A DNA stretch of 52,563 bases, counting the filler, from Catajapyx aquilonaris (Eukaryota), in the NCBI GenBank assembly GCA_000934665.2. It is 2 parts of 2 records of this genome, joined end to end, with 100 filler letters (N's around TTAATTAATTAA, not from the genome) between each part and the next. Parts side by side here need not be neighbours in the genome. Positions count along the whole stretch, not along the records: positions 26,343 to 52,563 come from JYFJ02005235.1; 1 more part is not named here. One strand, written 5' to 3'. The translations under genes were made by a program, and so were the position numbers. Position 1 is the stretch's first letter. The number at the start of each line of letters is the position of its first letter. The notes beneath the pieces were generated by a model. It searched no databases, was not told the origin of the DNA, and saw nothing but the letters and a program-made list of their open reading frames with translations. Below are positions 24,311-52,563 of this stretch, in pieces.

Positions 24311-25495
24311 TTATATATTTGCAAATATGTTCCTCTCGCGAGCTTCATACAACAGCGGTATAAGTCTTCCGACAAACTTCGGATTAGTGTAGATCTTCTT
24401 GAACTCTTCTTTGCGTTTCAAAGACTCGACGTTGTCCTCCGTCAACGTTGACAAGTCCGGTATATTGGCAGCGTCCATAGTAATCATCGGCAGCACAAGG
24501 CATCCAAATATAAAACCAAAGAGGTAATGTTCATTATATTCTTTCAGCAGGCACTGCAGAGTAAATTTAGACGAATCCACATCAGCGTCGTTCAGGTACG
24601 ACACAAACGCATCATGGTACGCTTCGAACAGGTCATCCAAGTGCTCTCTCCGCACCTCAGCAGTGGTGCTGGTGCAGAACAGATACGCTAGGTCAAGGGT
24701 ACGTGACCCCGCACGTGATATCTGATAATCCACCATCTTAACCTCCTGTGCTTTTCCTTCCTGATCGCACTTGAACAACATGTTGTTCACCCAGCAGTCA
24801 CCGTGGCAAACGACAGCGAACCCGTCATTGACCTTTTCGACCTGTTCGCGACATGCCTGCACAACGCCATAAGGTTTCTTGAGCAGTTTCTTCATCCCCT
24901 CAGCCACGTCGCCAAAATAACCCATCGCCTTCACCACCTCCATAGTGGCCGCAAAATGCTGGTTCATATACATCACCTCCTTGTTCTTATCCGGATCGGT
25001 CATCCTCTCCTTCAAGAACGGAAACTTATCCAACAGCATCGACTTATTCCCTTTTGCAAACAAATAAGACATGGCGTGGAATCGGGCCAATTCGACCACC
25101 ACCAGTTTGCAATGGTCGTAATCCAAACCCTGTATCCGGTCCGCCATTTTGAATCCAGATCGCTTCAGATTCTCCATCAATATGAAATCATTCTTTCCAT
25201 CTGACATTCCATAATAGAACTTGGGATAAGCGGAAAAGGCGCCCATTTTGACTCCACGGTCCGCCTGAAACTTGGCTAAAGAGGGCAGCACATCTTGATA
25301 AATATTTAGCTCCTTGACAAAGGCTTGCAAATGATCCAGCATTGCCTGACGAAACGGATTGTTGGGGATGCACTTGGCCATGATGGAGTAAGAGGTGGAT
25401 TTGCCGGATTTACGGGCTTCTATCTCTACAGCATACAGGAAGGCCAGGTAGTTGTCGCCGACGTTGGAGCCTGGTGTTACTTCAACCTTGGTTAT
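24311..25495 (-). CDS. Ecdysteroid kinase-like (EcKL / CHK kinase domain) protein. Large terminal exon of 394 codons plus stop; first exon not located
   Basis: Acceptor CGCCAG at 25496 leads into ITKVEVTPGSNVGDNYL. Family motifs FILMENLKRSGFKM, LARFHAMS, VCHGDCWVNNMLF, MVDYQIS and DLAYLF are present. Confidence 0.92.
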   Translation of the reverse strand: MTKVEVTPGSNVGDNYLAFLYAVEIEARKSGKSTSYSIMAKCIPNNPFRQAMLDHLQAFVKELNIYQDVLPSLAKFQADRGVKMGAFSAYPKFYYGMSDGKNDFILMENLKRSGFKMADRIQGLDYDHCKLVVVELARFHAMSYLFAKGNKSMLLDKFPFLKERMTDPDKNKEVMYMNQHFAATMEVVKAMGYFGDVAEGMKKLLKKPYGVVQACREQVEKVNDGFAVVCHGDCWVNNMLFKCDQEGKAQEVKMVDYQISRAGSRTLDLAYLFCTSTTAEVRREHLDDLFEAYHDAFVSYLNDADVDSSKFTLQCLLKEYNEHYLFGFIFGCLVLPMITMDAANIPDLSTLTEDNVESLKRKEEFKKIYTNPKFVGRLIPLLYEARERNIFANI

Positions 25496-26242
25496 CTGGC
25501 GACAGAAAATGTTGCATTATAAAAGAAGCTGGTGCATATTTTAAATTTGCGAAATTATACCCTGGGTAGTTCAACTTGAGTCGCTTTAATGTAAAGAAAG
25601 GTATGCAACAATCAAATGGCATGTAACATGTAGTTGAAGCCCGCACCCAATTATTGCTCAGAACATGTGGCTGAGATGCGCCTAAATTGCTAATTGTGCC
25701 TCTAATCTAAGCAGTGACCAAAGGATGACTTTCCTGCACCCCAACCTATCTATTATGAAAGTGATGTTTAAAAGAATAACTTCAATATTTATGCCTTAAT
25801 CCCAATGAAGCCGCCAAAAAACACAATTGGGCCAGGAAACCGATGCATATTTTAATCATCGTGGCACCAGGTTATTAGTTAATGCGTTTAATTGCTGATG
25901 CCTAAATCCCATAGGAAAAAGTAAAATATTAACGATCCTACTACACTACATAGTACGGGTCATTAAAAATACAAGTGTTACATCACTCCCAGCACGCGAC
26001 TTCCTCACGAAAAGCAAGGTCATTGCACACTATACATGGTTGCCAAATAAGTAATTACCAGTGACAGCTGGAACCCCATGTTCTTCTAAATATTCTCGCC
26101 TAAGAAAAGTTTCCATGCACACTATTACACTTCACAAAGCGATGCTCCTAATAATAATCATAATCATAATCATAATAGTAATAATATGGACACTTTGTAT
26201 AGTTTTTTTTTTAAATTATGGAATTGTTAGCTGAAGACACTA

Positions 26243-31000: not shown

Positions 31001-34000
31001 GATACATCCGCTTCCACAATTGGTGTCAATCGTGGCCACTCATGTGCCATCACGTGGTATGGACGTGTATGTGTAATGAGGAAGCTTCCTTTTCTTGGTT
31101 GTAATCTCAGAACAAGCAAACGGACACGGGTTCACGGATCGATCACACGTACTTGAAATAGAGTAATAGATATGTTTATCTCAGGAGGTGCTCGATGGGA
31201 GGGATAAAATGGAAGGGGGGGAAAAAAAAGTTCAACTCGTGTCGAACAGGAGTGTATAAACCTTGAGACGGATATTGCAATGTTGTGTGTGTGTGTTTTT
31301 TTAAAGACCGGTTTTGCAGGATTTGCAAATTTTTTTGGAGCACATACAAGGTGGTTTGTCACCATTGTGAACGTCAAAGGTGGAGCAGAAAAAACAGAGA
31401 TAATAATTATCACTGATCATGCTAAGGATTTTTGTTTGCTTTTGAACCGTTTTGAAAGCCTATGTTTGGTAACGATGTTTCTGAAACTAAATCACATCTG
31501 TACAGCACAAAATTATCCAGGTGTTTACTGCATAAGTTTGAACTCGTTAATGATACACCCTGTATGTCCTTCGAGTGAATGGGACTAGTTAAGTAAGTTA
31601 CAGGTTCGTTGCCAATCAGGTTTTCTGGCCCTTTATTTATTAGCCAAAGAAATGTAAACAACTGAGAGCTGTCATTTATATTGCGACGGTCCTGTAATTT
31701 TTTATTCACAAAAATGTCAATTACATGGGAGCGTTCACTTCACATAAAAAAAGGTTGCCAGATTAATTTCCGGGATTGTTTGTGCCATCAATCGTGATGG
31801 TTGGGTTCCAAGTCCTTCCAATCCAAAGTCTCTGCTTGTGCCCGTATCAAAGGTCAACGATTTAGCAGGATCAAAGTGTATACAGGGGGGCTTTCTTGGC
31901 AAGTAATTTTGCTGATTATGTCCGGATTACTTCTTTATATATATAAAAAAAGATAAAATTGGACAGCGGCCTCGTGTGACGAAAAATTCGGATCTGATAT
32001 TTTTTTTGTTATTGAATGTGTAAAACACAAATTTTACGATCGCGTCCATATATATATATGGCTATGGTAATCATATAATCTTTACAACTGATGGTTACTC
32101 TATTATGCAGCACCTTGTCCTGATATAGTCTGCCTGGCATGGTGCACACACGTCAATGAATAGCAAATTAGCTGCATTGACATGCTGATTCCCAAAAAAA
32201 ATATTTCGCAATGTATTAATTTTATTTCCAGATGTTTGCTTCCGAACGAGTTTCCCAATAACGCGACTTACGAGCTGACACCAGAGCAGCTGAACTCCAG
32301 CTACCCTTGGGATTCTCTGGCCCAAAAATGGTCGCAATGCAGCTACCTGGACCAGAACGGTACCGCAAGATCCTGCGAGGAAATGGTGTACGACACCTCC
32401 AAGTACAAGAGCAGCGCAGTCATAGACGTAAGGACAACCTCTGTCAATTATAATTATTATATGTAATACATATAACATTTGTTGTCAGTGGGGAATGACG
32501 TGCGAGAGGTCGGTGATTCACGCGACTGCCCAAGCATTGTTCATGGTCGGTGTCCTCCTGGGGTCAATCGTCTTTGGAGACCTTTCCGATCGGTAATAAT
32601 CAATCGAATTGCGCAGACAAGAAAGACTTAATTGTTTGACCTCTTTCTGTGTGAAAATATGTAAGGTATGGACGTCGACCGGTGTTCTTCGGGTCGCTGG
32701 TACTGCAGGTGGTGAGCGGGATATTGGCAGGGTTGGCTCCGGAGTACATCTCGTTCGTGGCGGTACGTATTCTGGTCGGAGCAAGCACCTCGGGAGTCTT
32801 CCTGGTGGCGTACGTCATTGGTAAGGAAGCTGTACACGGAACACGATGACACTCTACCCAGAATGTGCCGAACACAGGTGTGGAGCTGGTGGGTCCGAAC
32901 CATCGCCTGTTCACCGGTACAGTGTGCCAGATATTCTTCAGCTGCGGGTACATGGTGACGGCCCTGTTTGCGTACCTGATCGACGACTGGAAGATGCTGC
33001 AGATCGCCTTGTCGCTTCCGGGTCTTCTCTTCCTCTGCTACTGGTGGTGAGTCCGAGCTCTTCAGCATGTTTTAATTGCCCCACCACAATTGATGTTTCC
33101 ATCACAATAAGGTTTGTGCCGGAGTCCATACGATGGCTGATGTCCCAGGGAAGAAACGAGGAGGCGGTGTCGCTCATCCGGAAGGCAGCGGCTGAGAACA
33201 AGGTGTCCATGCCGGACGAGGTGTACGACAGCATCCTGAAGGCCGAGGCGGACGTCGAGGTCAAGCCGGCCGCAGTGGTCAAGAAGGCCAGTCTGCTGGA
33301 CCTCCTCAGGACGCCCAACATGAGGAAGAAGTCTATCAACATCTTCTTCAACTGGTTAGCAATTAAGATCCATATATGTATACAGAATGGAGGACAACTG
33401 GACAAGTGTGTCTCCGTTTCAGGTTCGTGAACAGCGGTGTGTACTACGGCCTGTCTCTGAACACGTCCAACCTGGGCGGAAACGACTACCTGAACTTCCT
33501 GATATCAGGTGCTGTGGAGATACCGGCGTACCTCTCTGTACTATTCACTCTGAACATTTGGGGCAGGAAGTACATGCTCTGCGGGAACATGATCGTCGGA
33601 GGCGTCGCTCTGCTCTTGACATTAGCAGTACCTGATGGTATGTTCAAAAAAAAAGGTACAAAAAAATATGTCCCAATTGTCTCATCCGCATTATTATTTT
33701 TTTGTTCGCAGATCTTCCAGTGCTGACCATAACCTTAGCCATGCTGGGCAAGATGGCCATCACAGCTTCGTACGGCATCATCTACATATTTTCGGCCGAG
33801 CATTTTCCGACCGTGGTCAGAAACGTCGGTATTGGAGCCAGTTCGACAAGTGCTCGAGTTGGAGGTATCCTGGCTCCGTACATCATCCTGCTGGTATGTA
33901 TTACAATATGGCACACCAAAAAAAAATTTAGAAGCAAAAAAAAACTGCAAAAATTCGCAAAAACCTGTTTGCATTTTATTTCCACAGGCCGATTTCTGGA

Positions 34001-34383
34001 GACCGTTTCCTCTCCTGATATTCGGCGGATTGGCCTTCGTGGCAGGGATATTCGCACTTTTGCTGCCCGAGACGTTGAACCGCAAACTTCCAGAGACCAT
34101 AGAGGACGGAGAGAGGTTTGGACCGTAAGCATTGTTGTGCTGAACATTCAGGACGACTTGTCTGATTTTCTGGTTTTTCTTGATATTGTCTGATCTTCTG
34201 GATTTTCTTGAATTGTCTGATCTTCTGATTTTTCTTGAATTGTATGATCTTCTGAATTTTCTTGAATTGTATGATTTTTGCAGGAGAGGGATTGAGGAAG
34301 CTGACAGCAGCGAGAAGACTATAATCAACGGGCTACTGGGTGGGCCAAATGAGAAGGAGAAAGAGGCATCCTTGCCCAGCTAA
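28081..34383 (+). CDS. SLC22 organic cation transporter (Orct-like, MFS), about 558 aa. Exons 28081-28098, 29807-29964, 32232-32427, 32489-32592, 32666-32820, 32878-33046, 33112-33354, 33423-33637, 33712-33893, 33988-34124, 34284-34383
   Basis: Phase-consistent GT-AG model totalling 1677 nt. Motifs MKFDTVLSHLGEFGRYQ, LSDRYGRRP, VPESIRWL, AEHFPTVVRN and LLPETLNRKLPETIED. The 18-nt first exon is less certain; M in MKFD is an alternative start. Confidence 0.93.
28278..28384. mobile_element. Very short Tc1/mariner-type MITE in SLC22 intron 1
   Basis: TA|CAGGGTGACCCCAAAAGTCTGGACACA ... TGTGTCCAGACTTTTGGGTCAC, with a degenerate right tip. Confidence 0.65.
34175..34280. repeat. About 4 copies of a 27-bp tandem repeat in the last SLC22 intron
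   Basis: Unit TTTTCTTGAATTGT[C/A]TGATCTTCTG[G/A/T]A, running up to the acceptor at 34283. Confidence 0.85.
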
Positions 34384-35744
34384 TGGAAAACAATGGGGCC
34401 GCGCAGAGACCGTTGATGTTGGGCTTCCAAAAGTAGCGTTTATTAATATTAACATATTGCTTCCATTCCACTTTAGAGAGACTATACATGAAAATTATTG
34501 AGAGCCACATCCACTGCCACTCTGCCAATTTAAAAGCCTCTGCTCAAGTAACAGATATTTTAGACGTCTGAATTAATATTGCGACGTATATGAATACTAT
34601 TTTTCATCTAGTCAAAGTCCTTTTTTTTTGTGCCACGAATGTTAATTACACCACCGTGTAAAAAGTTGCCCACAGTTCATTAGGGAGGAATTGGATTGTT
34701 CTCTCCGGCAATGTGTTAGAAGCAACAAGCTGGTTGCTAGAGTAAACAATATTTGTTCAGTTCACCACCGCTGAATATTTTCAAAGTAAAAAATAGAATA
34801 AATAGAAAATTGTCACCAAAGATGCCTTTTTAAAGAGTCGAATGAAGGGTGTTCTAGAGGCACATGGTTAATTAAATCCCAAGGTCATCTGGATAATGAT
34901 GCATCCTGTTTTGTTACGAAGTTTTTTCCAATCTTGAGGTCGTTACACTGCTGGTTCATAACAGATTGTGGCGTATGCGTGTCACCAAAAGTTTCAGGAG
35001 GTGACAGTGTGAATGACTGCCTTTGGTTGTAAGATTAAAATATATTTAAACCAACAATATGGTGATAACGTTGTGGGCCAATTGTGCAACTATTAAGTTA
35101 CGTATATAATATCATATACCTATAATGTAATGTGCGAAGGTTTTGTTCTCGCATATTTTCCAGTACAGTATCTGTACTTTGTCAGATTTTGACTGGCATG
35201 GTGAGGTGTTGTTCACAAACTGATGAAATTATGTACTCTCATAAATTGTTAAATAAACATTTTGTATTACATCATCACCAGTGTTCAAGTTTTATACACA
35301 ACCTCTTGAACACCTGTATATGGCTTTAACCACTTTGACAGGTATTGCACACAATAGGTGGGCCATAAGAAAATGTCGAAGTAACTGTCACAAAAATACA
35401 TGTTTATTTGTTCAGTAAATTTATATCCATAACATGTCAAATATGTATAATATTATGCAAATATGCTCTCCAAAAAAATAGTATTTTTTTACCCTGCGTT
35501 TTTCATAGCTTAGGAATCCACGTCCAAGGTCACTTTTTATTTTGGCTTAAATGTCTGGCTCACAACAATGTTATATTTCACAGCATCACTGCCAATGACA
35601 TATACGTACAGTAGTTACACGGAAGACATCAAAGTTTTAACCATATATTTTTCTCTCCTTTTTTCCTCAGCACAACAACAGTAGAAAAATAAACATGTTC
35701 AGCCTTACCTGCGGAATGAACCCTAATCTTAATTATAAACCCAG

Positions 35745-38700
35745 TTAATTCCGAGCTTTTAATTTTTTGGCAATTGCAGCCACCAATCCAGCTCCTTTAC
35801 CACTTCCATCCTCAGCTAAAAATAGCTGAAACTATTCAAAAAAAATAAAAAGTGGATTGAAAAAATAGGATCACGCCTGAAAAAAATGATTTTTCGCTTA
35901 CCTTCTTTCCCGGAGCCATTCTGCTAATGAACTGAGTCATTAATTGCTTCAGACGTGGATGATACTTAAAAAGGGAGCCATCGACTGCGATCGTGATCTC
36001 CTGGCGATCTATGCGGTTCAAAACGCTGGACAAACCTGTTAAGCATAATTCGCACATTTTTTTTTTTTACAAGAGATGCTTCGATTAATTAAGATTTAAA
36101 TTATCTCACAAATGGAAACGAGAAGAGCGGCTCTGGTTGACACGACGCTGGAAATGTGCTTGACAATGGTCATGTCATCCTCTCCGAAGGTCAGGCTCAT
36201 GTCTTGCAGGATTTGGGTAATGTGCTCTGATGAGTTGTTCAGGGTGTCTCTATGGAAGAAAGATTTTTTTAAATGTGAATCACACTCAATAAAGTTCCTG
36301 AGTAAAGTTAGAAAGTGTAAGAAATTTCATATTGAACTAATTAATAAAGCAAGTTATTACAACAGTAACAAAATAGGAGTAGTGACCATTCATTACATGT
36401 CAAACTTACTCTTCAATTTGTGAGATGTAACTGGAATGGAAGCTTCCGTGAGTTAGAAGCTGCTCGGTGGCGATGCCGCTGAAGATGGCCTTGTCCTGGG
36501 TCAGTTTGACCAGAATGACCCTGACAATTTCGCCCAGGTAAGTTCCGGCCACGTATTTTTCAAACCTGCATAGAACATATAAGTCACAGTCTAAATTCGA
36601 GAACTATAGAGTCATACGTACGTAAATGAATTGACTAGCAATGAGCTGTTGTCCACGTCTCTATCAAAATCCGTCTTGATAAAGTCCAGAACTCCGTTGT
36701 CACCAAAAGCACCCCATTCAATATCTATGATCACCTGTATTAAATCATTAGTTACAAGTGGATAAAAATATTCTAAAAGCAAGAATGACCTCTTTGGCTC
36801 CGCGGTTGTCCTTCCACTGCCTGATCCTGTCTGCTCTCTCGATATAACATGCGTTGCATCCACTTCCGAGGATGAGTCCCACTGCGCATCTGTGGTCCAG
36901 GAAGGCTCCCTGGACTAATGTTCCAGTGGTGTCGTTCAGGACGGCCACCACTTCCACCTGGAGGTCGCCTCGACGCTTCAGGGCGTCGCTCAGCATCTGA
37001 GACGCGTTCTCTCCGACCACGTCTGGGCAGTTGAACGTCTTCGTCCAGGACAGGAGGATGCCCACGTCGATCCCTCTGTGCTCCATAGGGAAAGAGAAGG
37101 TGAATCCTGAGAGAAGATAAAATAAATATTAGCACTAAAAAGTGTTGGCCATTGCAATTCATCATTAATACATGTAACACTTGTTCATGTACTGAGAAAA
37201 CATTTTATTAAACTTATTGTGACCAAAACAATAATTTTTTTTCAGGTGCTATGAAATTATGGGCTAGGTCAACATTCAATGACATGCATTGTAATGTCAC
37301 ATTTTACTCCGAAGAATCTTATCCAGCACTTAGTACATTATTCACTTATCAAGAAGGCTATACTTCCGCACTTATTCGTGTCTCGAATGCTGGCTGAAGC
37401 AATAATTCTTTGTCTCAGACAATTGCAAAAACTAGCCACAGAATGTGGCCTTGCACACATTATCCAATTTCATGTGACATATACTGCTGTATCATAAACA
37501 ACAGTTAATATTCGAGGCAGTTCTTGTTAAAATATATTATTATGATGGAGGAATGATGGTCTGACCTAAAGGCAAGGTTCGATGAAGCATGTTCTTTTCC
37601 TTCAGAAAGTCGTGTATACATTCGGCCAGGAAATCAAACAGAGGCTTTCCAGGTCCTTTACGAAGATGGTCCGCCACATGATAGTACTTTAGCTCCTCTC
37701 GAGCTATAGCACCACTCTCAAGGACCAAAAGACACACTCGGAAGTTGGTTCCTCCAAGGTCTAGCGCCAGGTATTCGCCTTCCTCTGTAAACAATATCAT
37801 TTAAATGTATTTTGATGAGTAAAGCGTGCAATGATGAATGTACCTGATCCGTCTGGAAGTTCAGGTATGTATGTATTTTCCATCTGGAGCGACGAAGGTT
37901 CTCCAGCGAGACCTCTCTCCATCTCTGATTCAAAGACATCTCGGATTCTCCTTTGAGTATCAGCATTCAGTTTCAGTCCTGCCAGCAGCTGTTCAACCTG
38001 CAGAGATGGTTCAAAAAATAATAATATAGTTCAAGTGAGACAGAACATGTAATTTAGTTATCGCGACACTACCAATAAAGCTAGATGTCAACCGACAAAC
38101 AAACGTGAGGCTGTAATTTTACCGAGTTATAATTAGAAAGCAGATCAGTTTACATACAGATTGAATCAGATCTCGTCAAGTTTCGCGCGCCCAATTCGTT
38201 ACAAAAAAAAAAACGTCTTTCTGACCACTAACGACTTCCTTTTCATCTATTGAAACGTATCTAGATTAAAAGGAGTGTAGCAGAAAAAAAAAGTTTTCTC
38301 TCTTCAGTCAAGATGTATAAACATTGTAGCGCAACACGACCTCCAAATGCAATCGATCGAATCAGAATAGTCTATTGATTCTGCTGCGCGTAGTTTTAGA
38401 ACCTGAGATTCACCCCGTTACAATTTACTGTGCTTTTACATTTGTTGGTAATTTATATCTAATTTCTATATCAAATTTTACAAGTTTGATTAAGACGATT
38501 GTTGCGCCAGGTTCAAATCCATGCTGGGAAAACAATCCGTTGCTGTCACATCCTATACAGTAATGAGGAAGTGTTGACATTTTCTGTGCAGTATTACATA
38601 ACACGTCTATGACTCTTAAAGAGGAAAACATATGTAAAAAAAAATTCGCACGGACTTCCATATAATTTGTGAGGCGTGACCTCGAATGCGGCAATGTGCC

Positions 38701-38950
38701 AACACGATGCTTAAAATTCAAGCACGATACGTGGAGTGTATGACGTCAACCTGTAACATGTGCACTTTTATCTGACCCAAGTGTAATGTATTCTACACAC
38801 CCGGTGGGGGAAAAAAAAGTCATGCAACGACATTAATTTACATACCTGTTGCACCTTCTTGTTGTCTGCAAGCTTCAGCTCCGGAAAATCTAATCCGGAA
38901 CACATTTCTGCGTCTGGTTTGTGTGATGTTACGGACTCGACTGCTGCCAT
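35745..38950 (-). CDS. Hexokinase, canonical 50-kDa type (HK-A), about 474 aa. Exons 38950-38846, 37997-37844, 37784-37566, 37106-36790, 36734-36622, 36565-36410, 36249-36110, 36035-35902, 35831-35745
   Basis: Phase-consistent, 1425 nt. Motifs LALDLGGTNFRV, LGFTFSFP, WTK, VLNDTTGTL, GSGCNACY, EWGAFGD, FEK, AVDGSLF and EDGSGKGA are all intact. Confidence 0.95.
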
Positions 38951-39421: not shown

Positions 39422-41440
39422 TCAAGCTTTGGCAGCTGCAGCCACAAGAGCAGCTCCTTTTCCGCTTCCTTCTTCCGCCAGTATCAATTCAAACTGCGGA
39501 AAAAAAACATAAGGTGCAAATTTCTGCACACTTTCGCACACCATGAGAGCACTTACCTGTCTTCCAGGACACATGTCGCTTATGAACTTGTACATGTATG
39601 ACCTGAGTCGTGGATGGTACTTGAAGAGTGAGCCGTCGATCGCGATTGTCGTTTCAGGTCGAGCCATTCTCTCCAGCAAGTGTGAGAGATGAATCGATGC
39701 AACAATGGCCGTCCTTACAGATATGAGTTGACATATGTGCTTCACGATTGCGATGTCATCTTCAGTCGGACTCAATTCCAGATCTGTCAGAAACTTCCTG
39801 GTGTTTTCAGTCTTGTTGTTCAAGTTGTCCCTTGAAAATAATTCGGATTATGACACAAGCATCAACATAAAAATTGACTAATTGTAAATATTTATCTAAT
39901 AAATAATAGCCATGTACTTACTCTTCAGCTTTGGATATATCTGGTGCCCCAAAACTCTCAGCAGCTGTCAATTTGTCAGATACTTTCCCATTAAAAAGTA
40001 GCCCTTCTTTGGCCAGTTTTATCGTCGCAAGGCGTAATAATTCGCCATAATATGCTCCACCAATAATCTTCTCAAGTCTGCAGAAAGAATATTGGTAAAC
40101 CACTAAAAATGAGTGCACATAAATGCTAATCAGAGTAACATTTAGTTAAAAGTACTTGCTACAGTCTCTGACTGTTCTGAATATTTTATAGTAAGCTGCT
40201 TCACTATGTACACATAGTACAAGCAATCACGTACGTGAACATATTAGGCTCGATTGATTTCTCGTCAATTTCCAGATCAAATTCAGTCTTGAAACTATCC
40301 AGCTTCCCATCCTCTCCTAAAGAGCTGCTCTCTGTGTTCACCACCACCTGAAGACCAAAAATCGTATTAAGAAACAATTCGCCCAAAGTATTAGTTAAAT
40401 GATAGCCGACAATGACCTTTCCTGTTCGACCTTTCCCTGCATGACCTCCCTTCTTAATCTTGTCTGCATCTTCCAGATAGCAAACGTTGTATCCACTCCC
40501 CAAGATAACTCCCATGGCGCTTCTCTTGTCCTGAAACGCTCCTTGCATCAGGGTTCCTGTGGTGTCGTTCAGGATGGCCACCACCTCCACATTGACCATC
40601 CCTTGTCTTTTGATGGCCTCCTTCAACAAAAGGGCAGCGTCTTTCCCAACAACATCTGGACAGTCGAATGAATTAGCCCAGGAGATAAGAATACCAGAGT
40701 CGATCGCCATTTGGTGGAATGGAAATGAGTATGTGAAACCTACGGGGAAATAAACGTGTACAAAAAAAAAAGGTAACGTGCTGAGACAATATTAAACTCG
40801 GTGGACATACCAAGTGGCAGCTTTTTCTCCAGAAGGTTCCGTTTCTTCAAGAAGTCGTGGATTGATTCGGCCAGAAAATCAAACATTAGAACTCCAGGCC
40901 CCTTTCGCAGCTTGGAAGGAACCTCGTAGTATTCCAGCTGAACATCCTGTTCTTTTCCAGCACCTCTAAGCGTCAGGAGGCATACTCGGAAGTTGGTTGC
41001 ACCCAAGTCTAATGCCAGGTATTCTCCAACCTCTATACAAAAGGAGTCGATTTTTGTGACAGCATATACACTTTAATAACGAACACAACTGACCAGATCC
41101 GTTTGGAAGCTCCGAAATGTGTGTGTTTTCCATCAGCATTCTTGTGGGCTCCCCTCGCAATCCTTTTTCCAGCTCATCATTAAAGATGGTCCTGAATTGT
41201 GTCCTCCTCTTCTGATCCCATTTGAATCCCTTCAATTCATTCTCCACCTACATAAAAAAACATAGTCAGACACTAACCTTGAACTGATAGTCATGCGAAC
41301 TCGGCCTGATCGAAAGTGAAACCGCACAGGATTTTGATCTATACCGTACTGCTACATGTATATAATATTAATATATGACAAACCTTATCCGCTTTGGACT
41401 TGTCCTTCAAAACAAGGGACGGGCAGTATTCTGGTTCCAT
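39422..41440 (-). CDS. Divergent hexokinase paralogue (HK-B), about 456 aa. Exons 41440-41384, 41247-41094, 41032-40811, 40739-40417, 40347-40235, 40077-39922, 39830-39557, 39493-39422
   Basis: Phase-consistent, 1371 nt. Motifs LALDLGATNFRV, GFTYSFP, WAN (for WTK), ILNDTTGTL, NTESS, LEK, IDGSLF and EEGSGKGA. Confidence 0.93.
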
Positions 41441-42172: not shown

Positions 42173-44259
42173 TCACGCCTTCTTTTTCTTCTTAATAATG
42201 GCAGCAGTCAACGCAGCACCTTTAATCGTGCCATCCTCAGCAAGTATGATCTCAAACTGGAAACGACATTATCATTTCGACTTGAACACTGCAATAGAAC
42301 TCACATCGCTTTACCTTCTTTCTGGGGACCAGTTCGTGCAGGAAAGTGTGCAGATACGAGTTCATTCGCGGATTCTTCCTGTACAAGGCGCCATCGACTG
42401 CAATTGTCGCTTCATTGCATCCCATCCTCTTCATCAAGCATGCGACGCAGATCGAGGCGATCATCGCTGTCCTTAGGCACATGAGTGCACTCACGTGCTT
42501 CACGATCGCAACTTCTTCGGCTATCTTCGCCGCGAGACCAAAGCCTCCCGTCAGATTGGCCTTCGTCCTGCCAGCGTCGTCCAGGTTGTCTCTTTTTTAT
42601 TTTATTTGGGAGAACACTCTGAGAGTTTATACATTCGTGAGACAGCTCCAAAGGACATACAAACATCAAGGGCAGCTCAAAATTCAGCCCTAAAAGCTTG
42701 TCATTCGACAACCTGGACATACTCACTCTTCAGCTTCCAGGACGAACCGCATGTCTAAACTGCCTGGAGTCTCCAGATTGAGCTTGCATCCAGAAAATCC
42801 TAACTCGTTGAACAGCTTCAACAAGACGAGACGCATCAACTCGCCCAAGTGAGCGCCTCCAGCAATTTTATCCATCCTGCCCACCCAAAAAAAATAAATG
42901 GATGTTACTATATACGACCCTGAACTCTGACCCGAAACAGTAGCTTACGTGAAAGAGCTGGGCTCATCCGACTTCTCGTCCAGCTCGGTGTCGAACTCAG
43001 TCTTCAGATAATCCATGTTGCCTTCGTCCCCTACAAGGCCACACTCTGTGTTCACAATCACCTGCAGGCACACGAATAGTATGTGTTATAGCTAGGTCAT
43101 TAGGTCAGATTGCCCACTTTAATTATTGTGACCTTATCGCCTTCACATGTGTACTCTTTGTACAGACTGGATTTGTCCAAGTAGCAGATGTTGTAACCTG
43201 TCCCCAAAACGAGTCCTATGGCGCATTTGGGGTTTTGAAAGGCTCCTTGTACCAGTGTGCTTGTGGCGTTGCTTAGGATGGCCACCAACTCCACTTTGGA
43301 CAGATTCTTTCGGGACAGGGCCTCGCTCAGGACGAGGGACACGTCCTTTCCGATAGAGGCGGAGTCCTTGTACCGGCTGCCCCAGGTAATCAAGATGCCC
43401 GAATTTATCTCCTTTTGGTAGTACGGAAACCCTAAAGTGAAACCTATACGAGAAAGAGAGCCAACCCGTTGTCAAAATTTGGCAACACTGTCCCCTGGAC
43501 TTAGTGCGTTATGCCACAACAATATGGCGCGCATCATCTCTCTCTGCACACTACTGCCACTCTCAGTTACTAATGCACGTTGGTGATGAGTCAACGTATA
43601 AAGGGACAGAGTGACACCTAAGATAATTTTTGTACATGATGATTAATATTGCCTACCCAGAGGTAGCTGCTTCTCCAAAAGGTTTCTCTTGCTCAAAAAT
43701 TCGTGGAGGGAATTAGCTATAAAGTCGAACAAGCTGCTGTCCGTGGCCTGTCTCACATCTGGAGGCACCAAGTAGCTCTCAATATCCACATCGGGCTCGG
43801 AATCTCGTCCTTTGAGAACCATGAGGCAAACGCGGATTCGACTCGAATCCAGCTCTAGTCCCAGGTACTCTCCGACCTCTGAAAAACATGACTCTTATAT
43901 AGTTACATATCCTTGTGTCGGAATAAAAAGTACGGGCCCTCACCAGACCGATCTGGAAATTGCGACACGTGTGTGTTGATCATCAGCATCGTTGTCTCTT
44001 CCTCCGGATTAAAACCTTTAGCCAACTCGAGCTTGAAGTCCAAAAAGAACCTCATCATCGTATCCTTACTTAAGCTGAATCCTTTAACAATATCCTCAAT
44101 CTGCATTGGAAAACATGTCCCGTTCATGTAATTGTTATACGGGTAGGTACAATTACTCACTTTTTCCTTCCGCTGTACGTCGTCCAAGACAAGTTCCGGA
44201 TGACGCAGAGCTTGATTAGTCGGCGGTTTGCTCGACGAACACCCGCATTCGTCCGCCAT
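42173..44259 (-). CDS. Hexokinase-like protein, predicted catalytically inactive (HK-C), about 470 aa. Exons 44259-44161, 44100-43944, 43878-43657, 43443-43133, 43061-42949, 42876-42727, 42591-42315, 42256-42173
   Basis: Phase-consistent, 1413 nt, no stops or frameshifts, same intron positions as HK-B. Motifs altered to LGLELDSSRIRV, GFTLGFP, WGS, ILSNATSTL, MDK, VDGAL and EDGTIKGA. Ends KKKKKA. Confidence 0.88.
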
Positions 44260-44286
44260 ACTGTACCGTTTTTCCGTGTCACAATC

Positions 44287-44328
44287 ATTACCGATGGCAA
44301 CAATCGGAATTTGCGTTTCTGTCGCAAC
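44287..44328. promoter_or_regulatory. Two X-box-like (RFX) motifs in the HK-C/IFT88 divergent promoter
   Basis: ATTACC-GAT-GGCAAC (44287-44301) and GTTTCT-GT-CGCAAC (44315-44328) are imperfect matches to GTNRCC(N0-3)RGYAAC. Confidence 0.55.
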
Positions 44329-44631
44329 CGTTCATTTAGTTAACAGACATTCGAACATTTTTTTTATTCCTTTTTTTTAAAAAAACCAAGGTTCAAAAAC
44401 GCCCGCGCTTTCAAATTCATCAGAATATCGAACACTCCCGGCAACTTCGCCCATCAAGAGGAAATAGCGAATCGTGAATATGCGGCTGCCGAAAATTCAC
44501 TCCGGCTACCAGGCCAAGGTTCGTGTTCGAATTATCGATCTTCTGAAGTTCAATCAATATTATTTTCTTGTTTCGTTCTGGAACGGCCATTTGTGGTGTG
44601 TTTGCAGTCGACGGAGGTCAGCATGGTGGCC

Positions 44632-47600
44632 ATGATGGAGCAGATGCGGCTTGGAGCCACGGGCCCTCCTCCTGGTGGTGTAGCGGCACTGGCCAAGAAT
44701 AAGGAGGAAGAGGACGACCTGTACTCCGGCTACAACGAGTATCCAGAGGCACTCAACACCAAGGACCTGCATCAGGACGAGGGGTTCCAACAGGCCATCA
44801 AAACCAGCCATGGAAGGAGGCCCACGGTATTATAAAGGACAAACAAACAAACAAACAGACGGACAGACAGACAGACAGATGGACAGACAAACAAACAAAG
44901 TGTGGTAGCCATGGTAACAAACAAACAGACGGATAGACAGACAGACAAACAGACGGACAAACAAAAAGTATAGTAGCCATGGTAACAAACAGACAGACAG
45001 ACAGACAAACAGACGGACAGACAAAAAGTATAGTATCCATGGTAACAAACAGACGGACGGACAGACAAACAGACGGACAGACAAAATGTATAGTAGCCAT
45101 GGTAACAAACAAACAAATGGACAGACAGGCAAACAGACGGACAGACAAAAAGTATAGTAGCCATGGTAACAAACAAACGGACGGACAAACAGAGGGACAG
45201 ACAAAAAGTAGTAGCCATGGTAACGAGCAAAATCCAGCCATGGAAGGAAGCTTACGGTAAGAACAAACAAACAAACACGCAAGCCATGGAAGGAGGCCAT
45301 GGGGTCACAGTAAGTACAAACAAACAGACAGACAGACAAACAAACAAACAAACAAAAGTGTAGTAGCCATGGTAACAAACAAACAAATGAACAAGCCATG
45401 AAAGGAGACCTACGGAAAGAACAAACAAACTAACACACAAATCCAGCCATAGAAGGAAGCCGACAGTACGAACAAACAAGCCATGGAAAGAGACCGATGG
45501 TAAGAACACAGAACAAACAAACAACCAGACAAAACTAGCCTTGGAAGGAGACCCACAGCGAGAACAAACAAACAAACAAACAAACAAACAAACGAATGTA
45601 TGTATGAATAAACAGGCTAATAGTTGTCTGATTTTGTCTAACGTTGCAGGCCACACCGAGGGTACCGAGTACTGCGATGCGGCTTGGGACTGCGTCTGGC
45701 GTAAGTACTGTTCGGTACGGTTGCATCGCAGTTATTGTGATATGAACTTTTTGTAGTACCGAGCTGGTGCGACTGGGACGGGTTTGCGGACTGCAATGGC
45801 GTCACGTGCGGGCATGCAGACCGGGGATATGGATGTTGCCAGGCCGATTACAGCGGTGCGTGGAGCTGGGTACACGTCCAGTCAGAACAGGACGCCCGGA
45901 CAGAAGCTGTTCGATCCGTTGAACCTGGCAGCGAAGGGGACGGGGCCTGCGCCGCCCTTGGAGCTGAAGCTGGATGAGAGTCCGGAGGGGAAGATACGGC
46001 AGCTGGAGCGGAAGGTGAACGACTTGATTGAGGAGTCAATTTTGTTTGCCAAGAAGGGCGATGCGCGGACGGCGTTGGAGAGGGCCAAGGAGGCGTCCGC
46101 TAAGGAGAAGTCGCTGATCCGCATGCGGGACCAGATTGGGCTGAAGGACGGACATAATATGGATATGACGTTCAACGTTGCGTTTAATCTAGCCTCTGCG
46201 TACACGGTCAACGAGATGTACGTAGAAGCGCTTAGCACCTACCAGGCAATCACAAAGAACAGGATGTTCAGCAACGCCGGACGTCTGAAGCTGAACATGG
46301 GGAATATTTATTTCAAGCAGGGGCAGTACGCAAAAGCCATCAAATTGTATCGGATGGCATTAGATCAGGTACGCTCTTCATCCGTCAAGTGTACTTATTT
46401 TGTAATAACATGTCGTTCCTCCAGGTTCCGAACACGCACAAGGAGCTTCGTCTGAAGATAATGCACAACATCGGCTCCTTGTTTGTGAAGATGGGCCAGT
46501 ATGGCGATGCAGCCACGTCCTTCGAGTACATAATGCAGGAAAAGCCGGACCACAAGACCGGCCTGAATTTGATCCTCTGTTACTACTCGCTTGGTGATCG
46601 TGAGAAGATGAAAAAGGGATTTCAGGTCTGTTGCGTAGTTAATCGAGAGAGAGAGAGAGCTTCATGTATTGTAATTGCGTTTCTACAACGTAGGCCATGT
46701 TGGAGGTGCCTCAGTGCTTGGGACGCGACGACGAAGACAAGTACCATCTGGTGGGTGGCGAGGACCCTCTCCAACGTGCAATTATAGAGACAGTGAAAAA
46801 CGACAGCTACAGCCAGTTCCAGCGCAGGCGGAAGGAATCGACAGTGTACTCCGTGCTCACTTCGGCCAAGTTGATATCCCCTGTGCTGGGCTCGCCTGCG
46901 GTGGAAGGCAACGAGAACGGAGAGGGGCACGACTGGTGCGTGGAGGCCGTGAAGGCCAGCGGGGGGCCATTCAGCAACCTGGCTGGTGACCTGGAGATCA
47001 ATCGTGCTGTCAGCTTGATGAAAAAGCGAGACTTCGTTTCGGCGGCCGAGACGCTAAGGGCATTCGAGAAGAGGAAGGAGGCGAAAGTGGCCGGAGCCGC
47101 GGCTACCAACCTGACCTTCCTTCACTTTTTGCAGGTGATTATGGGACATGCCGGTACACAATCGAACCTGAACTGACCGCCAAATTAATATCGCAGGGTG
47201 ACTACGAGCAAGCGGAGAAGTACGGCGAACAAGCCCGACAAGCCGACCCGTACAGTGCCGGCGCATTTGTGAACCTGGGTAACTGCGCTTTCATCCACGG
47301 CGATGTCGAAAAGGCGCGTGAAATGTACGTGGTGGCCCTCGAGAACGACTCCTCCTGCGTGGAGGCTCTCTTCAACCTGGGGCTCTCGGACAAGCGGATG
47401 GCCATGTACGAGGAGGCCCTGCAGAGCTTCGAGAAGCTGCGTCACATTGTGCACAACCACCCCCAGGTCTTGTACCAGGTGGCGCACCTCCACGAGCTTA
47501 TGGGCGAGAGAGAGCAGGCCGTCGAGTGGTACCTGCAGGTCCTGGGAGTGGTGGCGTCCGACCCAAGCATACTTCACAGGCTCGGACAGCTGTACGATAA

Positions 47601-48539
47601 GGATGGGGACAAGCAGCAGTCGTACCACTATCACTTTGATGTGAGTACTTTGCATCATAAATTACAGTCACTTACAGTTAGGCCGCGTTTACATATGAGC
47701 AATTTGATCAGTGATACCGGAAAGTAACAATGTAAACGTGGCCTGCAGCAGTGCTGATCCGTAAAATTGCGTAAAGTGGTCAATCATTCATTTAAAAATC
47801 ATGTGCTAATTACTGCTTGTTTCACCCTAGTCGTACCGTTACTACCCGTCAAACCTCGAGGTGATTGAGTGGCTGGGATCCTACTTCGTGGAGATGCAAG
47901 TGGCCGAGAAGGCCATTGCTTACTTTGAGCGTGCAGCACTCATGCAACCGGATGATCCTCGTTGGCCTTTGACTGTCGCCAGCTGTCACAGACGAAGTGG
48001 AAGCTACCACCGTGCACTTGAAACGTACAGGTGAGCACATATGACGTACACTTGGGCATACAAATGATTCATATAAATGCAATTTGTGTCACAGGCGAGT
48101 GCATCGGAGGTTCCCCGAGAATTTGGAGTGCCTTCGATTCCTAATCCGCATCTGCAACGATATGGGCCTGAAAGAAGCGGCGGACTACGCAAACGAGTTG
48201 AAGCAAGCGGAAAAGGCAAAGGCGGCCAGAGAAAGGGCTGCCAGCTCCAGGCCTGGGTCACGTCGAGTAGGGTCAAGGTCAGGGTCGGCAGCCAGCGTGG
48301 CCAACAGCGCAGGATTGGTGAGAAGCACGCCAGGTTCGGCCCTGAGCTTGGGACGCGAGACCAGCCTGAGTCTAGACGACGACGAAGATTTCCTGGCGGC
48401 TAAGACGAAGGAAGTGGACGCCAGTTACAGCGACCCAATCGGGCCACTGGTGGAGAGGCCCAAGACCAGCATGGGTCGGGGGGTCAAGCCGGAAGAGGAG
48501 TTTGCTGAGGGAGAGGGACAGGATTTGCTGCCCGAGTAA
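44632..48539 (+). CDS. IFT88: Intraflagellar transport protein 88 (polaris/OSM-5/NompB), about 862 aa. Exons 44632-44826, 45650-45700, 45757-46368, 46425-46625, 46694-47134, 47197-47640, 47831-48030, 48095-48539
   Basis: Phase-consistent, 2589 nt. Motifs EDDLYSGYNEY, FQQAIKTSHGRRP, RPITAVRGAGY, TPRs with AIKLYRMALDQVP, FPENLECLRFLIRIC, DASYSDPIGPLVERPKTS and C-terminal LLPE. An in-frame ATG at 44623 is an alternative start. Confidence 0.97.
44836..45595 (+). repeat. Compound minisatellite in the first IFT88 coding intron: (ACAA/ACAG)n spacers with ~60-bp X-box units and degenerate copies of the exon end
   Basis: GTAGCCATGGTAAC at 44905, 44973, 45093, 45157, 45211 and 45363, and GTATCCATGGTAAC at 45033. 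About six AGCCATGGAAGGAG...ACGGTA-like copies lie between 45234 and 45560. Confidence 0.95.
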
Positions 48540-49089
48540 CTTACGAAGAGTACAATTATTTCCGTCCATTATTATAAGCACCTGCATTTGCCTTATTGCG
48601 CACCCTGTGATAATGTATGTTTTAAAATAAAGGATCTGTTGAATCGTTGCGATTTGAACTATCCTTCACATGCATTTACCTTGGACATACTTAATGAGCA
48701 TAAACAGGTTGTTTTGAACCTTGGTTGCTCGCAGCAGATGGCAACGCAATAAAATGCCTTCCCTTTTGTTTTTCATCCTCGTCGCAACAATTGTGCAAAT
48801 ATGATTCACGGAGGACAAATGGCAGTCATAAGGATACTTGCTGAGGACAAGGGCTCAAATTGTATCGCAATCAATGCATACTGATCTGGTTGAGTGGTAG
48901 CGAACAATGATGTCCTCAGGAATGTGCAGTGTTCCCATTATCTGCTCTGCACGTTATGTTGTTATTGTATAGTGAATAGTGAGGGACAAAAGGATTTTGA
49001 GCTCATTGCAGTTGAGGGAACGGCTAGGGTAAGTTCACCCCATCGATACGGCCGAAACTGATATGTAACGACAGTTATTTTCTCACCAG

Positions 49090-50063
49090 ATGAAGTGCCT
49101 GTACGCGATTGTGTGTTTGGCCGCTCTTTTCATCGGAGTACTTGCACAGTCATCAGAAGAACCATCCGGACCATCAAGTCAGCTACAAAATGTCATGGCC
49201 AGATTGTTCGACTTAATTGAGGAAGCGGCTAAAACGATCCAGATTGTCCCTAAGGTAATTTCATTCACTTTATAAGCGCACACTCTCTAGTTAAATCTAA
49301 TATTGTTAATTTATTAAGTGGGCAGTACAGTCATAATGTAATGAACAATTGTAATGCAGGACTTTAAAAATCTACAGCCGTACTTCAAAACCATCAACAA
49401 ATCACTTGAAACCATAAGTAAGAAGGTGAGAAGCGCAGAGATTACTCCCGAATAATTTAACCTGAAGAGTAACACTATTTTTGTTTCAGGTCATGAATCG
49501 CCTGATGGAGTCTCGTGATTCAATAGCCGCTCTGGGTAAACGAATTAATGAAGGCTCAGGTGATGATATACTAAGGCTGTACCGCATGATTATAAACGCA
49601 ACACTTGAAGCCCTGAACCGGTAAGCTATCGTACAGCAGAACCTTACAGATACAATAAATCATAATGTTTTCAGAGATTCGGAGGGGGCTGAAGAAACCT
49701 TCAGACGTGCTGGAAAAATACTTCCGCCATTGATCAACAGCATCTCCAGTGATGTAAAGGATGAACTGCCGAAGATAATTGAACCGTTTCAGAACGCTAG
49801 GGACGAGTTTGCACCCATGTTGCAAGATATGCGAGAAGCATTGAAAGCCATCTCTCATAAGGTTAGTCACAACATTTGGAGATGTAACTTGCAAAAATTA
49901 ATTATGATATTATTCACAGCTGGTGATGCAGATCATAACGAGGTCCAACCCGAGTTTAAGAAGTATCGTGAGCTTTATGAAACTACACGCACATGAGATT
50001 CAACAGTTGTCTGTAGATTTGAGCACGATTCTTGGGAGTATATACGGTTCACGCTCGCAATGA
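49090..50063 (+). CDS. Secreted alpha-helical protein of unknown family (paralogue 1), about 230 aa. Exons 49090-49254, 49360-49425, 49490-49620, 49675-49861, 49920-50063
   Basis: Signal-peptide-like MKCLYAIVCLAALFIGVLA and a phase-consistent GT-AG chain of 693 nt. The mature region is Cys-free and amphipathic. An upstream UTR donor lies near 49029. Confidence 0.75.
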
Positions 50064-51824
50064 TAAGCATGTGCTACCATCTCTAAGTTGGGTGTGCAAT
50101 GTTTAATAGCTGGCAAGTACACGGCAGGTGTCACTTCTTGTCACTTTTTATTCAGCAAATGTACTGCGCAATCAGGTGCATTGTCTACATAGGAGAAGCT
50201 AATATTAGACAATAGTGCCATAGACATTATATCGAACAAACCAGTGCTCTTATCTTGACAAAGTATGTACTCTTTTAGTCTTTGTACTTAATACATAAAG
50301 GATGATCAACTGGCTCGTTGTGCATCCTTTTCCCAGTTCGTTTTCAGAAATTTTTATAGACATGCTTCTTGTAATAAAAAAGGGGCGCTAAGGAATTTCA
50401 CAAGTCTTCCACGGCTCAAAAGGTGAATGGCAATGTAAAATAATACGGTCTCTTTGGTTTCATCATTTTACAGCTGTTACACCTACGTCATAACTACAGG
50501 CCTATTGCATACTAAAGTTTGCAGGTGAGAAGTGTTTACACAGTGCATAAGTTTCAAACCCAGCGGGTGGGTGAACAGCATAAGCTCTCTTTAGGTAGGT
50601 TAATAACAGCAATCAAAGTGTATTCGCCAAAAAGAGTTGCTGGTCAACATTACTATTATCAATCGCTGCTGCCGTTTAATCTGATTTGCAGCAGTCGATA
50701 AAACAGATACGACAGGAACTTTCTTGCCATCTCTTTCGCTTCAAAATAATCCTGCCATGTCTTGTGTGTAAGTCTTTTATACAAGTAGTACTGACAGAAG
50801 ATTTTGTACAATAACTCGTACAATGTCTTGTGAAGTAATACGGGTATTATCAATCTATGGTAGGGATTAAACGTGGCAAAAAATATTGAGCATTATTGTG
50901 CTGTACTGTAGAAAGTGTGCAGCTGCAGTGTACAGGACATAATTGAACTACATCAATATGTTTACATTATTCTGGAGTTAATAACATGTCATATGCAAAT
51001 ACTGAATGCAAACGAACCGAAATCATGCAGACATACTGTACATCACACATATGGTAGCAGCATATTTATCATCTCCTTATTGCCTTCAATGATATCAATA
51101 ATAATGTATATTCAATGCATATCACACTGATAACAGGATCAGTTTTGTGCACACAATAAATATACATTTAAAAAAAGTGATGCATAAATCCAATGTGCAC
51201 ATGCATATACAATAATTGCAAAAAAATCCGGATTGTTATCCGCACAAATCCTTCAGAAATCTTCTATAAATCTTGCAAATCCAATGGACTTAATCACTGA
51301 ATATAATTCTCTAAATTCATGATCACCTAACGTACAAGTTAGAGAAGTCTCTGCTATACAGAGAGGTTATCTCTTATTATCGTGATGACAATAAAGAATA
51401 AGTAGACCTAGATCACACATTTTCAAACGGTGTCAGTCACAAAATTATCAGTGCTGATTGTACGGCCTAATTATGACGTCAAAAATTATTGAATGCGGAC
51501 ATTTTTTTTTTTTCATTCTCATATCGACATAAGGTGTCACAAGTCTTTTCAAAAAAAAATGTCCACACCCTATCTTGCTATTGCAGAAAAAAAACACCTT
51601 CCTTTTTTTATTTATCATCCTCACATATCAGAACTTAATCACACTTATTGCAACGCACGTTTTCATATCCACTTGATCCCCCTGCAGTGTCAATCACTTA
51701 TTCTTATTCTGTCATTGAGTAATCCTAGAGCCGACGAAGGAAGATAAACGACTTTTAATCCCAAGGCCAGTCTGAAAATCGTCATCAAATCAAAGGTACA
51801 TCTTGATAGTGACACTTTGGCGAG

Positions 51825-51831
51825 TATAAAG
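51825..51831 (+). promoter_or_regulatory. Candidate TATA box of secreted paralogue 2
   Basis: TATAAAG followed by a short non-coding exon (donor AAG|GTATG near 51888) and an acceptor directly before the ATG at 51957. Confidence 0.55.
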
Positions 51832-51956
51832 GGGGATAAGTCGCCATTCCTCAGCCGCTACGGTAGATACAATCCGCAGTCAGGCAAGGTATGACTCGCT
51901 GTTCTGTCCACGCAATTAGCAAAAAAAAAGTTAACAAATTAATTTTTTTTTAACAG

Positions 51957-52558
51957 ATGAAGTACCTCCTGGTTTTCTTGGCCGTTTTTGGGCTCGCCAA
52001 TGCATCCCTAACCCTGCCTCAAAGTGGTACGTACGTTACATAACTCTATGTACACAACAATTTAACAATTGTTGTCCATTTTTCAGGATTCAGGACAGCT
52101 CAGCTTATACACAGGGGAGGTAAGTTTATGGACATTTTTTTAAAAGACGATTTGGGTGTTAACTTGGTTCTTTTTTTTAACAGTTGCATTGAAGGATGGA
52201 GAACTCGCAGATATCATCAAGATCCTCTCAAACCTTCTGAAGGAGGCTGTTGAAGCTGTTGGAGCTGACATGGCCGAAATTATTAGTTGGGTGAAAACAG
52301 AATGGCAGGCACTACAGCCTTACATTCATGACCTCAACGCAGCCATTCAGGACCTTGCTAAGCAGGTAAATTTTCAAGCTCATTAAATGTTTCATCGAGA
52401 ATATATGGATGATTGCATGTTCTGCAGCTCAACACTGATCTGCGTGGCTTGGGAGAAGCGGTGGCCAAGAAGGTCCTCCAGTTCATCGCCGATCATTCCG
52501 ACACTTTCAATCAACTCCAACAGCTGGTTGAAGATGCAGCTGACAAGTTGCAGAAGGG
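51957..52558 (+). CDS. Secreted alpha-helical protein (paralogue 2), 3'-truncated by the window. Exons 51957-52026, 52087-52119, 52184-52365, 52428-52558
   Basis: Signal-peptide-like MKYLLVFLAVFGLANA and phase-consistent exons. EWQALQPYIHDLNAAIQDLAKQ| aligns with paralogue 1 DFKNLQPYFKTINKSLETISKK|. Confidence 0.78.
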
Positions 52559-52563
52559 GTTAG

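Follow-up and report, generated by a model that had tools for sequence, protein, structure and literature searches.

Introduction

Several described systems bear on the arrangement analysed here. In Drosophila, IFT88/nompB is listed as a dRFX target (PMC2375033, Table 1), and RTNRCC N1-3 RGYAAC is the strictest X-box consensus of that study, which also cautions that an X-box before an ATG does not predict RFX control without cross-species conservation. According to a survey of divergent genes, 28% of Drosophila genes lie head-to-head within 1 kb, and close fly pairs of this kind are more co-expressed on average, with a second peak formed by uncorrelated pairs (PMC3483549). Most non-canonical carbohydrate-enzyme paralogues of Drosophila are described as testis-restricted, including the tandem pair Hex-T/Hexl, with 'like' names denoting predicted pseudoenzymes (PMC11836677); Hex-T and Hexl are the same genes as Hex-t2 and Hex-t1, which are reported to have arisen from the Hex-C cluster in drosophilids (PMC7560327). 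In trypanosomes, GAPDH-like and PGK-like dead homologues of glycolytic enzymes are described as flagellar components (PMC4106842). Our literature search found no relevant paper on RFX with divergent or bidirectional promoters. Here we analyse a window of 52,563 nucleotides from the 285.6-Mb assembly of the eukaryote Catajapyx aquilonaris, in which a hexokinase paralogue and IFT88 diverge from a short interval.

Results

Three tandem hexokinase genes adjoin IFT88

The minus strand of the window carries three hexokinase genes in tandem: HK-A (35743-38950; ATG 38950), a canonical hexokinase and a member of the pancrustacean clade that apparently adjoins IFT88 in insects; HK-B (39422-41440; ATG 41440); and HK-C (42173-44259; ATG 44259). 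Intron positions match among the three genes, except for one additional intron in HK-A, and the first exon of HK-C aligns with the first exons of HK-A and HK-B. IFT88 lies on the plus strand (44623-48539) in 8 coding exons that encode about 865 amino acids with TPR repeats. Its identity is supported by 255 homology matches, the named ones being IFT88/nompB, and the cockroach Periplaneta protein is 61% identical to it over 804 columns, with full-length orthology and the TPR array present. The initial annotation had placed HK-C and IFT88 head-to-head, and this layout held: the HK-C ATG at 44259 and the IFT88 ATG at 44623 or 44632 are separated by 363 or 372 bp, respectively, and orthologue starts agree with 44632. 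The 363-bp interval between the divergent start codons (44260-44622) is a putative shared promoter; measured by ATG, its span falls within the 1-kb spacing used for bidirectional promoters.

RNA evidence came from a single run (X1) at the contig level, and these contigs carry no start-site or expression-level information. Among the joints listed, at least four HK-A and at least four HK-B introns were spliced, and spliced IFT88 pieces extended over 46692-48499. Among the pieces listed, 44035-45741 was uncovered and HK-C nearly so, a pattern that is uninformative on expression. Two spliced plus-strand genes with signal-peptide-like or helical segments lie downstream of IFT88 (49069-49800 and 51500-52563); the two pieces compared with Pfam gave no clear match. 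Two further genes precede the hexokinase cluster on its upstream side (24311-25516 and 32825-34150), one ecdysteroid kinase-like and the other encoding a sugar/organic cation transporter.

HK-C is a predicted dead hexokinase under constraint

The HK-C frame comprises 470 open codons over 8 exons (exons 1-4, 44259-44161, 44100-43944, 43878-43657, and 43443-43133; exons 5-8, 43061-42949, 42876-42727, 42591-42315, and 42256-42173). In Pfam it matched Hexokinase_1 and Hexokinase_2, with three exons above the cut-offs. Compared to human HK1, HK-C carries S603G, T620G, K621S, N656S, D657N, and T658A, so that the catalytic Asp (D657) and the glucose-binding residues S603, T620, K621, and N656 are all changed, and the phosphate-1 loop reads ELDSSR in place of DLGGTN. 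By comparison, D657 is retained in all 268 of the other hexokinases compared (120/120 clade matches and 148/148 representatives). From these residues, HK-C is predicted to have lost both glucose binding and phosphoryl transfer. HK-B retains the catalytic Asp and has A at T620 and N at K621, both glucose-binding positions, as well as A at G535; it possibly has altered substrate preference or weak activity. Elsewhere in the assembly, L011:3460-4617 carries another hexokinase-like gene that has diverged much further; it is 23% identical to HK-A (Hexokinase_1 E 1.8e-7) and likewise has neither the NDT catalytic motif nor the FTFSFP motif.

In trees, HK-C was sister to HK-B (SH-aLRT 99-100) on a branch 4-5 times as long as that of HK-B, and monophyly of HK-A, HK-B, and HK-C was weakly supported (74). 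The window sequences were placed outside the insects and copepods sampled and, with weak support, outside the branchiopods and malacostracans. A HMMER search of 1.84 billion representatives with one 103-aa exon as query returned no close relative of HK-C, and a word search with one exon returned no orthologue. An AlphaFold model of a single exon had a pLDDT of 51, too poor for use.

Does HK-C still encode a working protein? It may have been constrained once and now be decaying or rarely spliced correctly, with the promoter serving IFT88 alone. The long HK-C branch fits this possibility, as does intron 6 (42592-42726, minus strand), whose homologous AAG acceptor scored -4.4, whereas the lowest of the 35 training acceptors scored 1.0; upstream AGs with better scores would lead to a stop near residue 357. 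However, our splice-site matrix was trained on just 35 introns from the window, and an in-frame alternative with the exon start at 42567 scored 0.4 and would give a protein of 462 aa. Moreover, comparison with HK-B gave dN 0.46 and dS 1.69, a dN/dS of about 0.27 (0.25-0.34 by three methods) that averages over both branches, and identity between the two genes was 72% at second but 43% at third codon positions. The open 470-codon frame together with the dN and dS values argues that, through most of its history, HK-C evolved under protein-level constraint. We consider decay improbable, and the features of HK-C are best described as the signature of a constrained pseudoenzyme, with an open frame apparently under purifying selection.

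One strict X-box lies beside the HK-C start

Two X-box-like sites had been proposed in the interval, and one of them survived scrutiny. The site at 44287-44301 is an exact match to the strict consensus, at -28 to -42 from the HK-C ATG and -322 to -336 from the IFT88 ATG at 44623. Of 2000 dinucleotide-shuffled versions of the interval, 5 contained a match of this quality, and of 330 background chunks of 500 bp, 4 did, which puts the site above chance. The window has seven such matches, this one and six in IFT88 intron 1. By contrast, the second site (44315-44328) fits none of the five consensus patterns tried and is one mismatch from the loosest, RYYNYY N1-3 RRNRAC; the interval contains five sites of that grade, compared to an average of 5.8 in shuffles, which is chance level. 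We also inspected 11 other ciliary promoters of the same genome. None had an exact strict X-box. Four had a site at most one mismatch away, a share that does not exceed the background (86 of 330 chunks), so no species-specific X-box matrix was built.

The position of the strict site allows a reading, advanced in the initial annotation, in which RFX has captured HK-C: the X-box would act in both directions, HK-C and IFT88 would be co-transcribed in spermatids or in neurons that bear cilia, where the dead enzyme would serve as a scaffold or regulator. The placement of the X-box at -28 to -42 favours this reading, and no strict X-box occurs within 500 bp upstream of HK-A or of HK-B. An upstream ATG on the minus strand (44286-44288) points the same way. 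It is out of frame, and its 43-codon frame overlaps the HK-C start, which suggests that the HK-C leader is either very short, beginning right beside the X-box, or spliced. RSPH3 is present in the genome, so motile-type axonemes are possible; a search for CATSPERG, run without a positive control, found nothing. The chance-level second site tells against capture, and so does the Drosophila finding that an X-box does not by itself predict RFX control (PMC2375033).

The 5' region of IFT88 bears on how far the X-box lies from the gene it would be expected to serve. An intron in the IFT88 5'UTR had been suggested on the basis of the acceptor at 44607. That acceptor scored 7.3, which ranks it in the 97th percentile among 2373 AGs, and the donor paired with it, at 44519, scored 6.2. 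Both values are typical and predict an 89-nt intron (44519-44607, plus strand); its placement in the 5'UTR is not required, because an ATG at 44480 in a candidate upstream exon (44480-44518, plus strand) is in frame with IFT88 once this intron is spliced. The intron could thus be coding, in which case the two starts may be separated by 220 bp. A weak Initiator-like hexamer on the plus strand (44332-44337) marks a candidate IFT88 start region.

An X-box array in IFT88 intron 1 is possibly repeat-derived

The first intron of IFT88 contains a tandem array (44850-45400, plus strand) with a unit of ~60 bp and an ACAA/GACA microsatellite. The array noted initially is real: six strict X-boxes and one variant lie at 44905-45376, 0.65-1.1 kb from the HK-C ATG. 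RFX could bind there. However, the perfect X-box palindrome occurs 157 times in the genome, compared to 2 for a control, and the X-box core followed by the ACAA microsatellite gave 37 matches, compared to 0. We considered the 157 palindromes as RFX promoters and rejected the idea, as 12 of 21 sampled loci matched a dispersed-repeat profile, in a comparison that is partly circular. The intronic array itself matched the profile weakly (E 0.02-0.07), and the match was confined to the core and microsatellite that had been used for selecting the family. Because perfect palindromes are often repeat-borne, the array is weakened as support for control of HK-C; it may be repeat-derived and not independent evidence, which also counts against capture.

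The dispersed repeat (L117-L136, L022, L026, L030, and L031) combines a perfect X-box palindrome, an ACAA microsatellite, and a T-rich end. It may resemble Helentron-associated elements, and it could seed RFX sites genome-wide. Within intron 1, several decayed copies of the end of exon 1 with donor-like sites occur at 45230-45545 and have the core of the X-box units in common.

The array also enters a different proposal, in which HK-C is the main user of the X-box at 44287 and IFT88 relies on the array or some other element. Distance favours HK-C, and the exact array 14-mer, which occurs 14 times genome-wide, has 6 of these copies in IFT88 intron 1. Nevertheless, the established RFX control belongs to IFT88, and if this gene begins at ATG 44480 and has the 89-nt intron, its start would lie ~180 bp from the X-box, similar to the IFT81 site at -157. 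We regard this division of labour as very unlikely.

Short divergent spacing also joins cilia and housekeeping genes

Close divergence is not peculiar to the HK-C/IFT88 pair. At 11 other ciliary loci of the same genome, we found BBS5 head-to-head with MED14 at 411 bp (L110:3838-4888), BBS2 head-to-head with an MTG1-like GTPase gene at about 445 bp (L112:1391-2806), and one B9D2 copy with a divergent zinc-finger gene whose start is uncertain. Short divergent spacing therefore also joins cilia and housekeeping genes in the Catajapyx genome, a further point against reading the present pair as a captured module. B9D2 is present three times, the copies being near-identical, and B9D1 twice, its copies having diverged; they lie on different contigs (L012, L013, L014, L017, and L018).

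Hexokinase and IFT88 appear linked across insects

Synteny in relatives had been proposed as a check. In all eight insect species with both accessions, hexokinase and IFT88 were close in accession order: the numbers were consecutive in Cephus, Periplaneta, Eufriesea (GenBank set), and Odynerus, with gaps of 2 in Timema, 3 in Schistocerca, 5 in Polistes, and 31 in Leptopilina. Both genes were assigned to the same scaffold length in seven of the seven insect species with scaffold data, and the same pattern was found in four ants and one further bee. The RefSeq numbers of Eufriesea are 363 apart, yet the genes share one scaffold. Taking accession order to track gene order, we infer that the two genes are adjacent in these insects. 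Two candidate cases were set aside: the two matches in Antedon are on different scaffolds, and the hexokinase and IFT88 records of Apis cerana come from different assemblies. IFT88 was present in none of 77 metagenome hexokinase loci, most of which are transcripts, short contigs, or members of other clades.

No crustacean species supplied both proteins among the accessions compared. The linkage check covered insects, and orientation of the pair comes from Megachile. There, IFT88 is joined in one gene model to a hexokinase of the HK-A clade that lies downstream of it and on the same strand; the 'nompB isoforms' of Megachile rotundata (P0217 and P0219) are such fused IFT88-hexokinase models, probably the product of an annotation merge or of read-through. 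A single inversion of IFT88 would turn the bee order into the Catajapyx order.

These results suggest that the hexokinase-IFT88 neighbourhood is probably older than HK-C and inherited, and that HK-C arose within it by tandem duplication. The synteny check supports linkage but not proximity as a sign of capture, because a neighbourhood that appears older than HK-C would account for the proximity. The capture reading draws support from a strict X-box near HK-C, the status of nompB as a dRFX target, and a constrained pseudoenzyme, but not from the second site, the intronic array, or proximity. We judge capture somewhat unlikely; what sustains it is that the one good X-box is very close to the HK-C start and that the genome has RSPH3. 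A full-text search, outside subscription journals and some supplements, found no paper on a hexokinase-IFT88 link. This microsynteny, which extends over Catajapyx and four or more orders of insects, is apparently undescribed.

Discussion

The explanation we favour, tentatively and at slightly under an even chance, is that an ordinary RFX-type IFT88 promoter lies beside an inherited hexokinase cluster whose nearest copy is non-catalytic and probably a tissue-restricted paralogue. An arthropod ancestor would already have had a hexokinase adjoining IFT88. Tandem duplication in the Catajapyx lineage would have produced HK-A first and HK-B and HK-C later. The head-to-head order seen here and the same-strand order of the bee would differ by an inversion that took place in either of the two lineages. 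The compact IFT88 promoter, with its single good X-box, would give IFT88 its usual RFX control. HK-C, the copy nearest IFT88, would have lost glucose binding and phosphoryl transfer while keeping constraint at the protein level, and would most likely be a non-catalytic, tissue-restricted paralogue, like those that insects express in testis, regulated independently of IFT88. Its closeness to the X-box would be inherited, and any effect of RFX on it would be that on a bystander and no evidence of a ciliary module.

Several observations run against this explanation. First, the distance from the only strict X-box in the interval to the HK-C ATG is about a tenth of that to the IFT88 ATG at 44623. 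Second, none of the sites in the 11 other ciliary promoters matches as well as 44287-44301. Third, co-expression is reported to be commoner, on average, in close head-to-head pairs (PMC3483549). The weak support for monophyly of HK-A, HK-B, and HK-C and the gap of 363 between the Eufriesea RefSeq numbers also count against it. A more elaborate history can also be imagined, in which a regulatory reason kept the linkage across insects and Catajapyx, a non-insect arthropod, an inversion set the hexokinases on the IFT88 promoter, and the nearest copy came under X-box control, ceased to be catalytic, and became a pseudo-hexokinase of the cilium or sperm tail. We give this history little credence; if true, a metabolic duplicate would have entered the RFX programme by position.

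Irrespective of regulation, HK-C offers a clean example of a predicted lineage-specific dead hexokinase. Were RFX capture true, position alone could recruit a metabolic duplicate into ciliogenesis, and the locus would provide a compact 363-bp element for asking whether X-boxes act both ways.

Comparison with known systems

In the dRFX-dependent promoters described in Drosophila, including that of nompB/IFT88, a near-palindromic X-box precedes the gene by a few hundred bases (PMC2375033), as 44287-44301 precedes IFT88 here. In Catajapyx a pseudo-hexokinase diverges on the other side of the interval. Close head-to-head pairs of arthropods, as described, share with this locus opposite strands, start codons less than 1 kb apart, and a compact setting (PMC3483549; PMC2670823); the fly pairs are mostly housekeeping genes, and the HK-C/IFT88 spacing is measured between start codons.

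Two systems provide models for HK-C itself. Drosophila Hex-T/Hexl, as reported, resemble HK-B/HK-C in being tandem hexokinase duplicates with one strongly diverged copy. They are probably not orthologous to HK-C, as they are reported to stem from the drosophilid Hex-C cluster and HK-C has the local HK-B as its sister. Grouping of HK-C with HK-B, in trees without fly sequences, argues for an origin independent of Hex-T/Hexl, and HK-C, though like the testis pseudoenzymes of Drosophila, probably arose independently. The trypanosome flagellar pseudoenzymes are likewise dead glycolytic homologues and would be the model for HK-C, and a point in favour of capture, if RFX had recruited it; they are different enzymes in a different lineage, and their flagellar localisation is reported from experiment (PMC4106842).

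The closest counterpart is the insect neighbourhood of bees, wasps, ants, cockroach, locust, and stick insect, in which a hexokinase of the same clade apparently lies beside IFT88, as here. It differs in two respects. In Megachile the hexokinase is downstream of IFT88 on the same strand, whereas the Catajapyx genes are head-to-head, and the IFT88-neighbour hexokinases of insects keep the catalytic Asp that HK-C has replaced.
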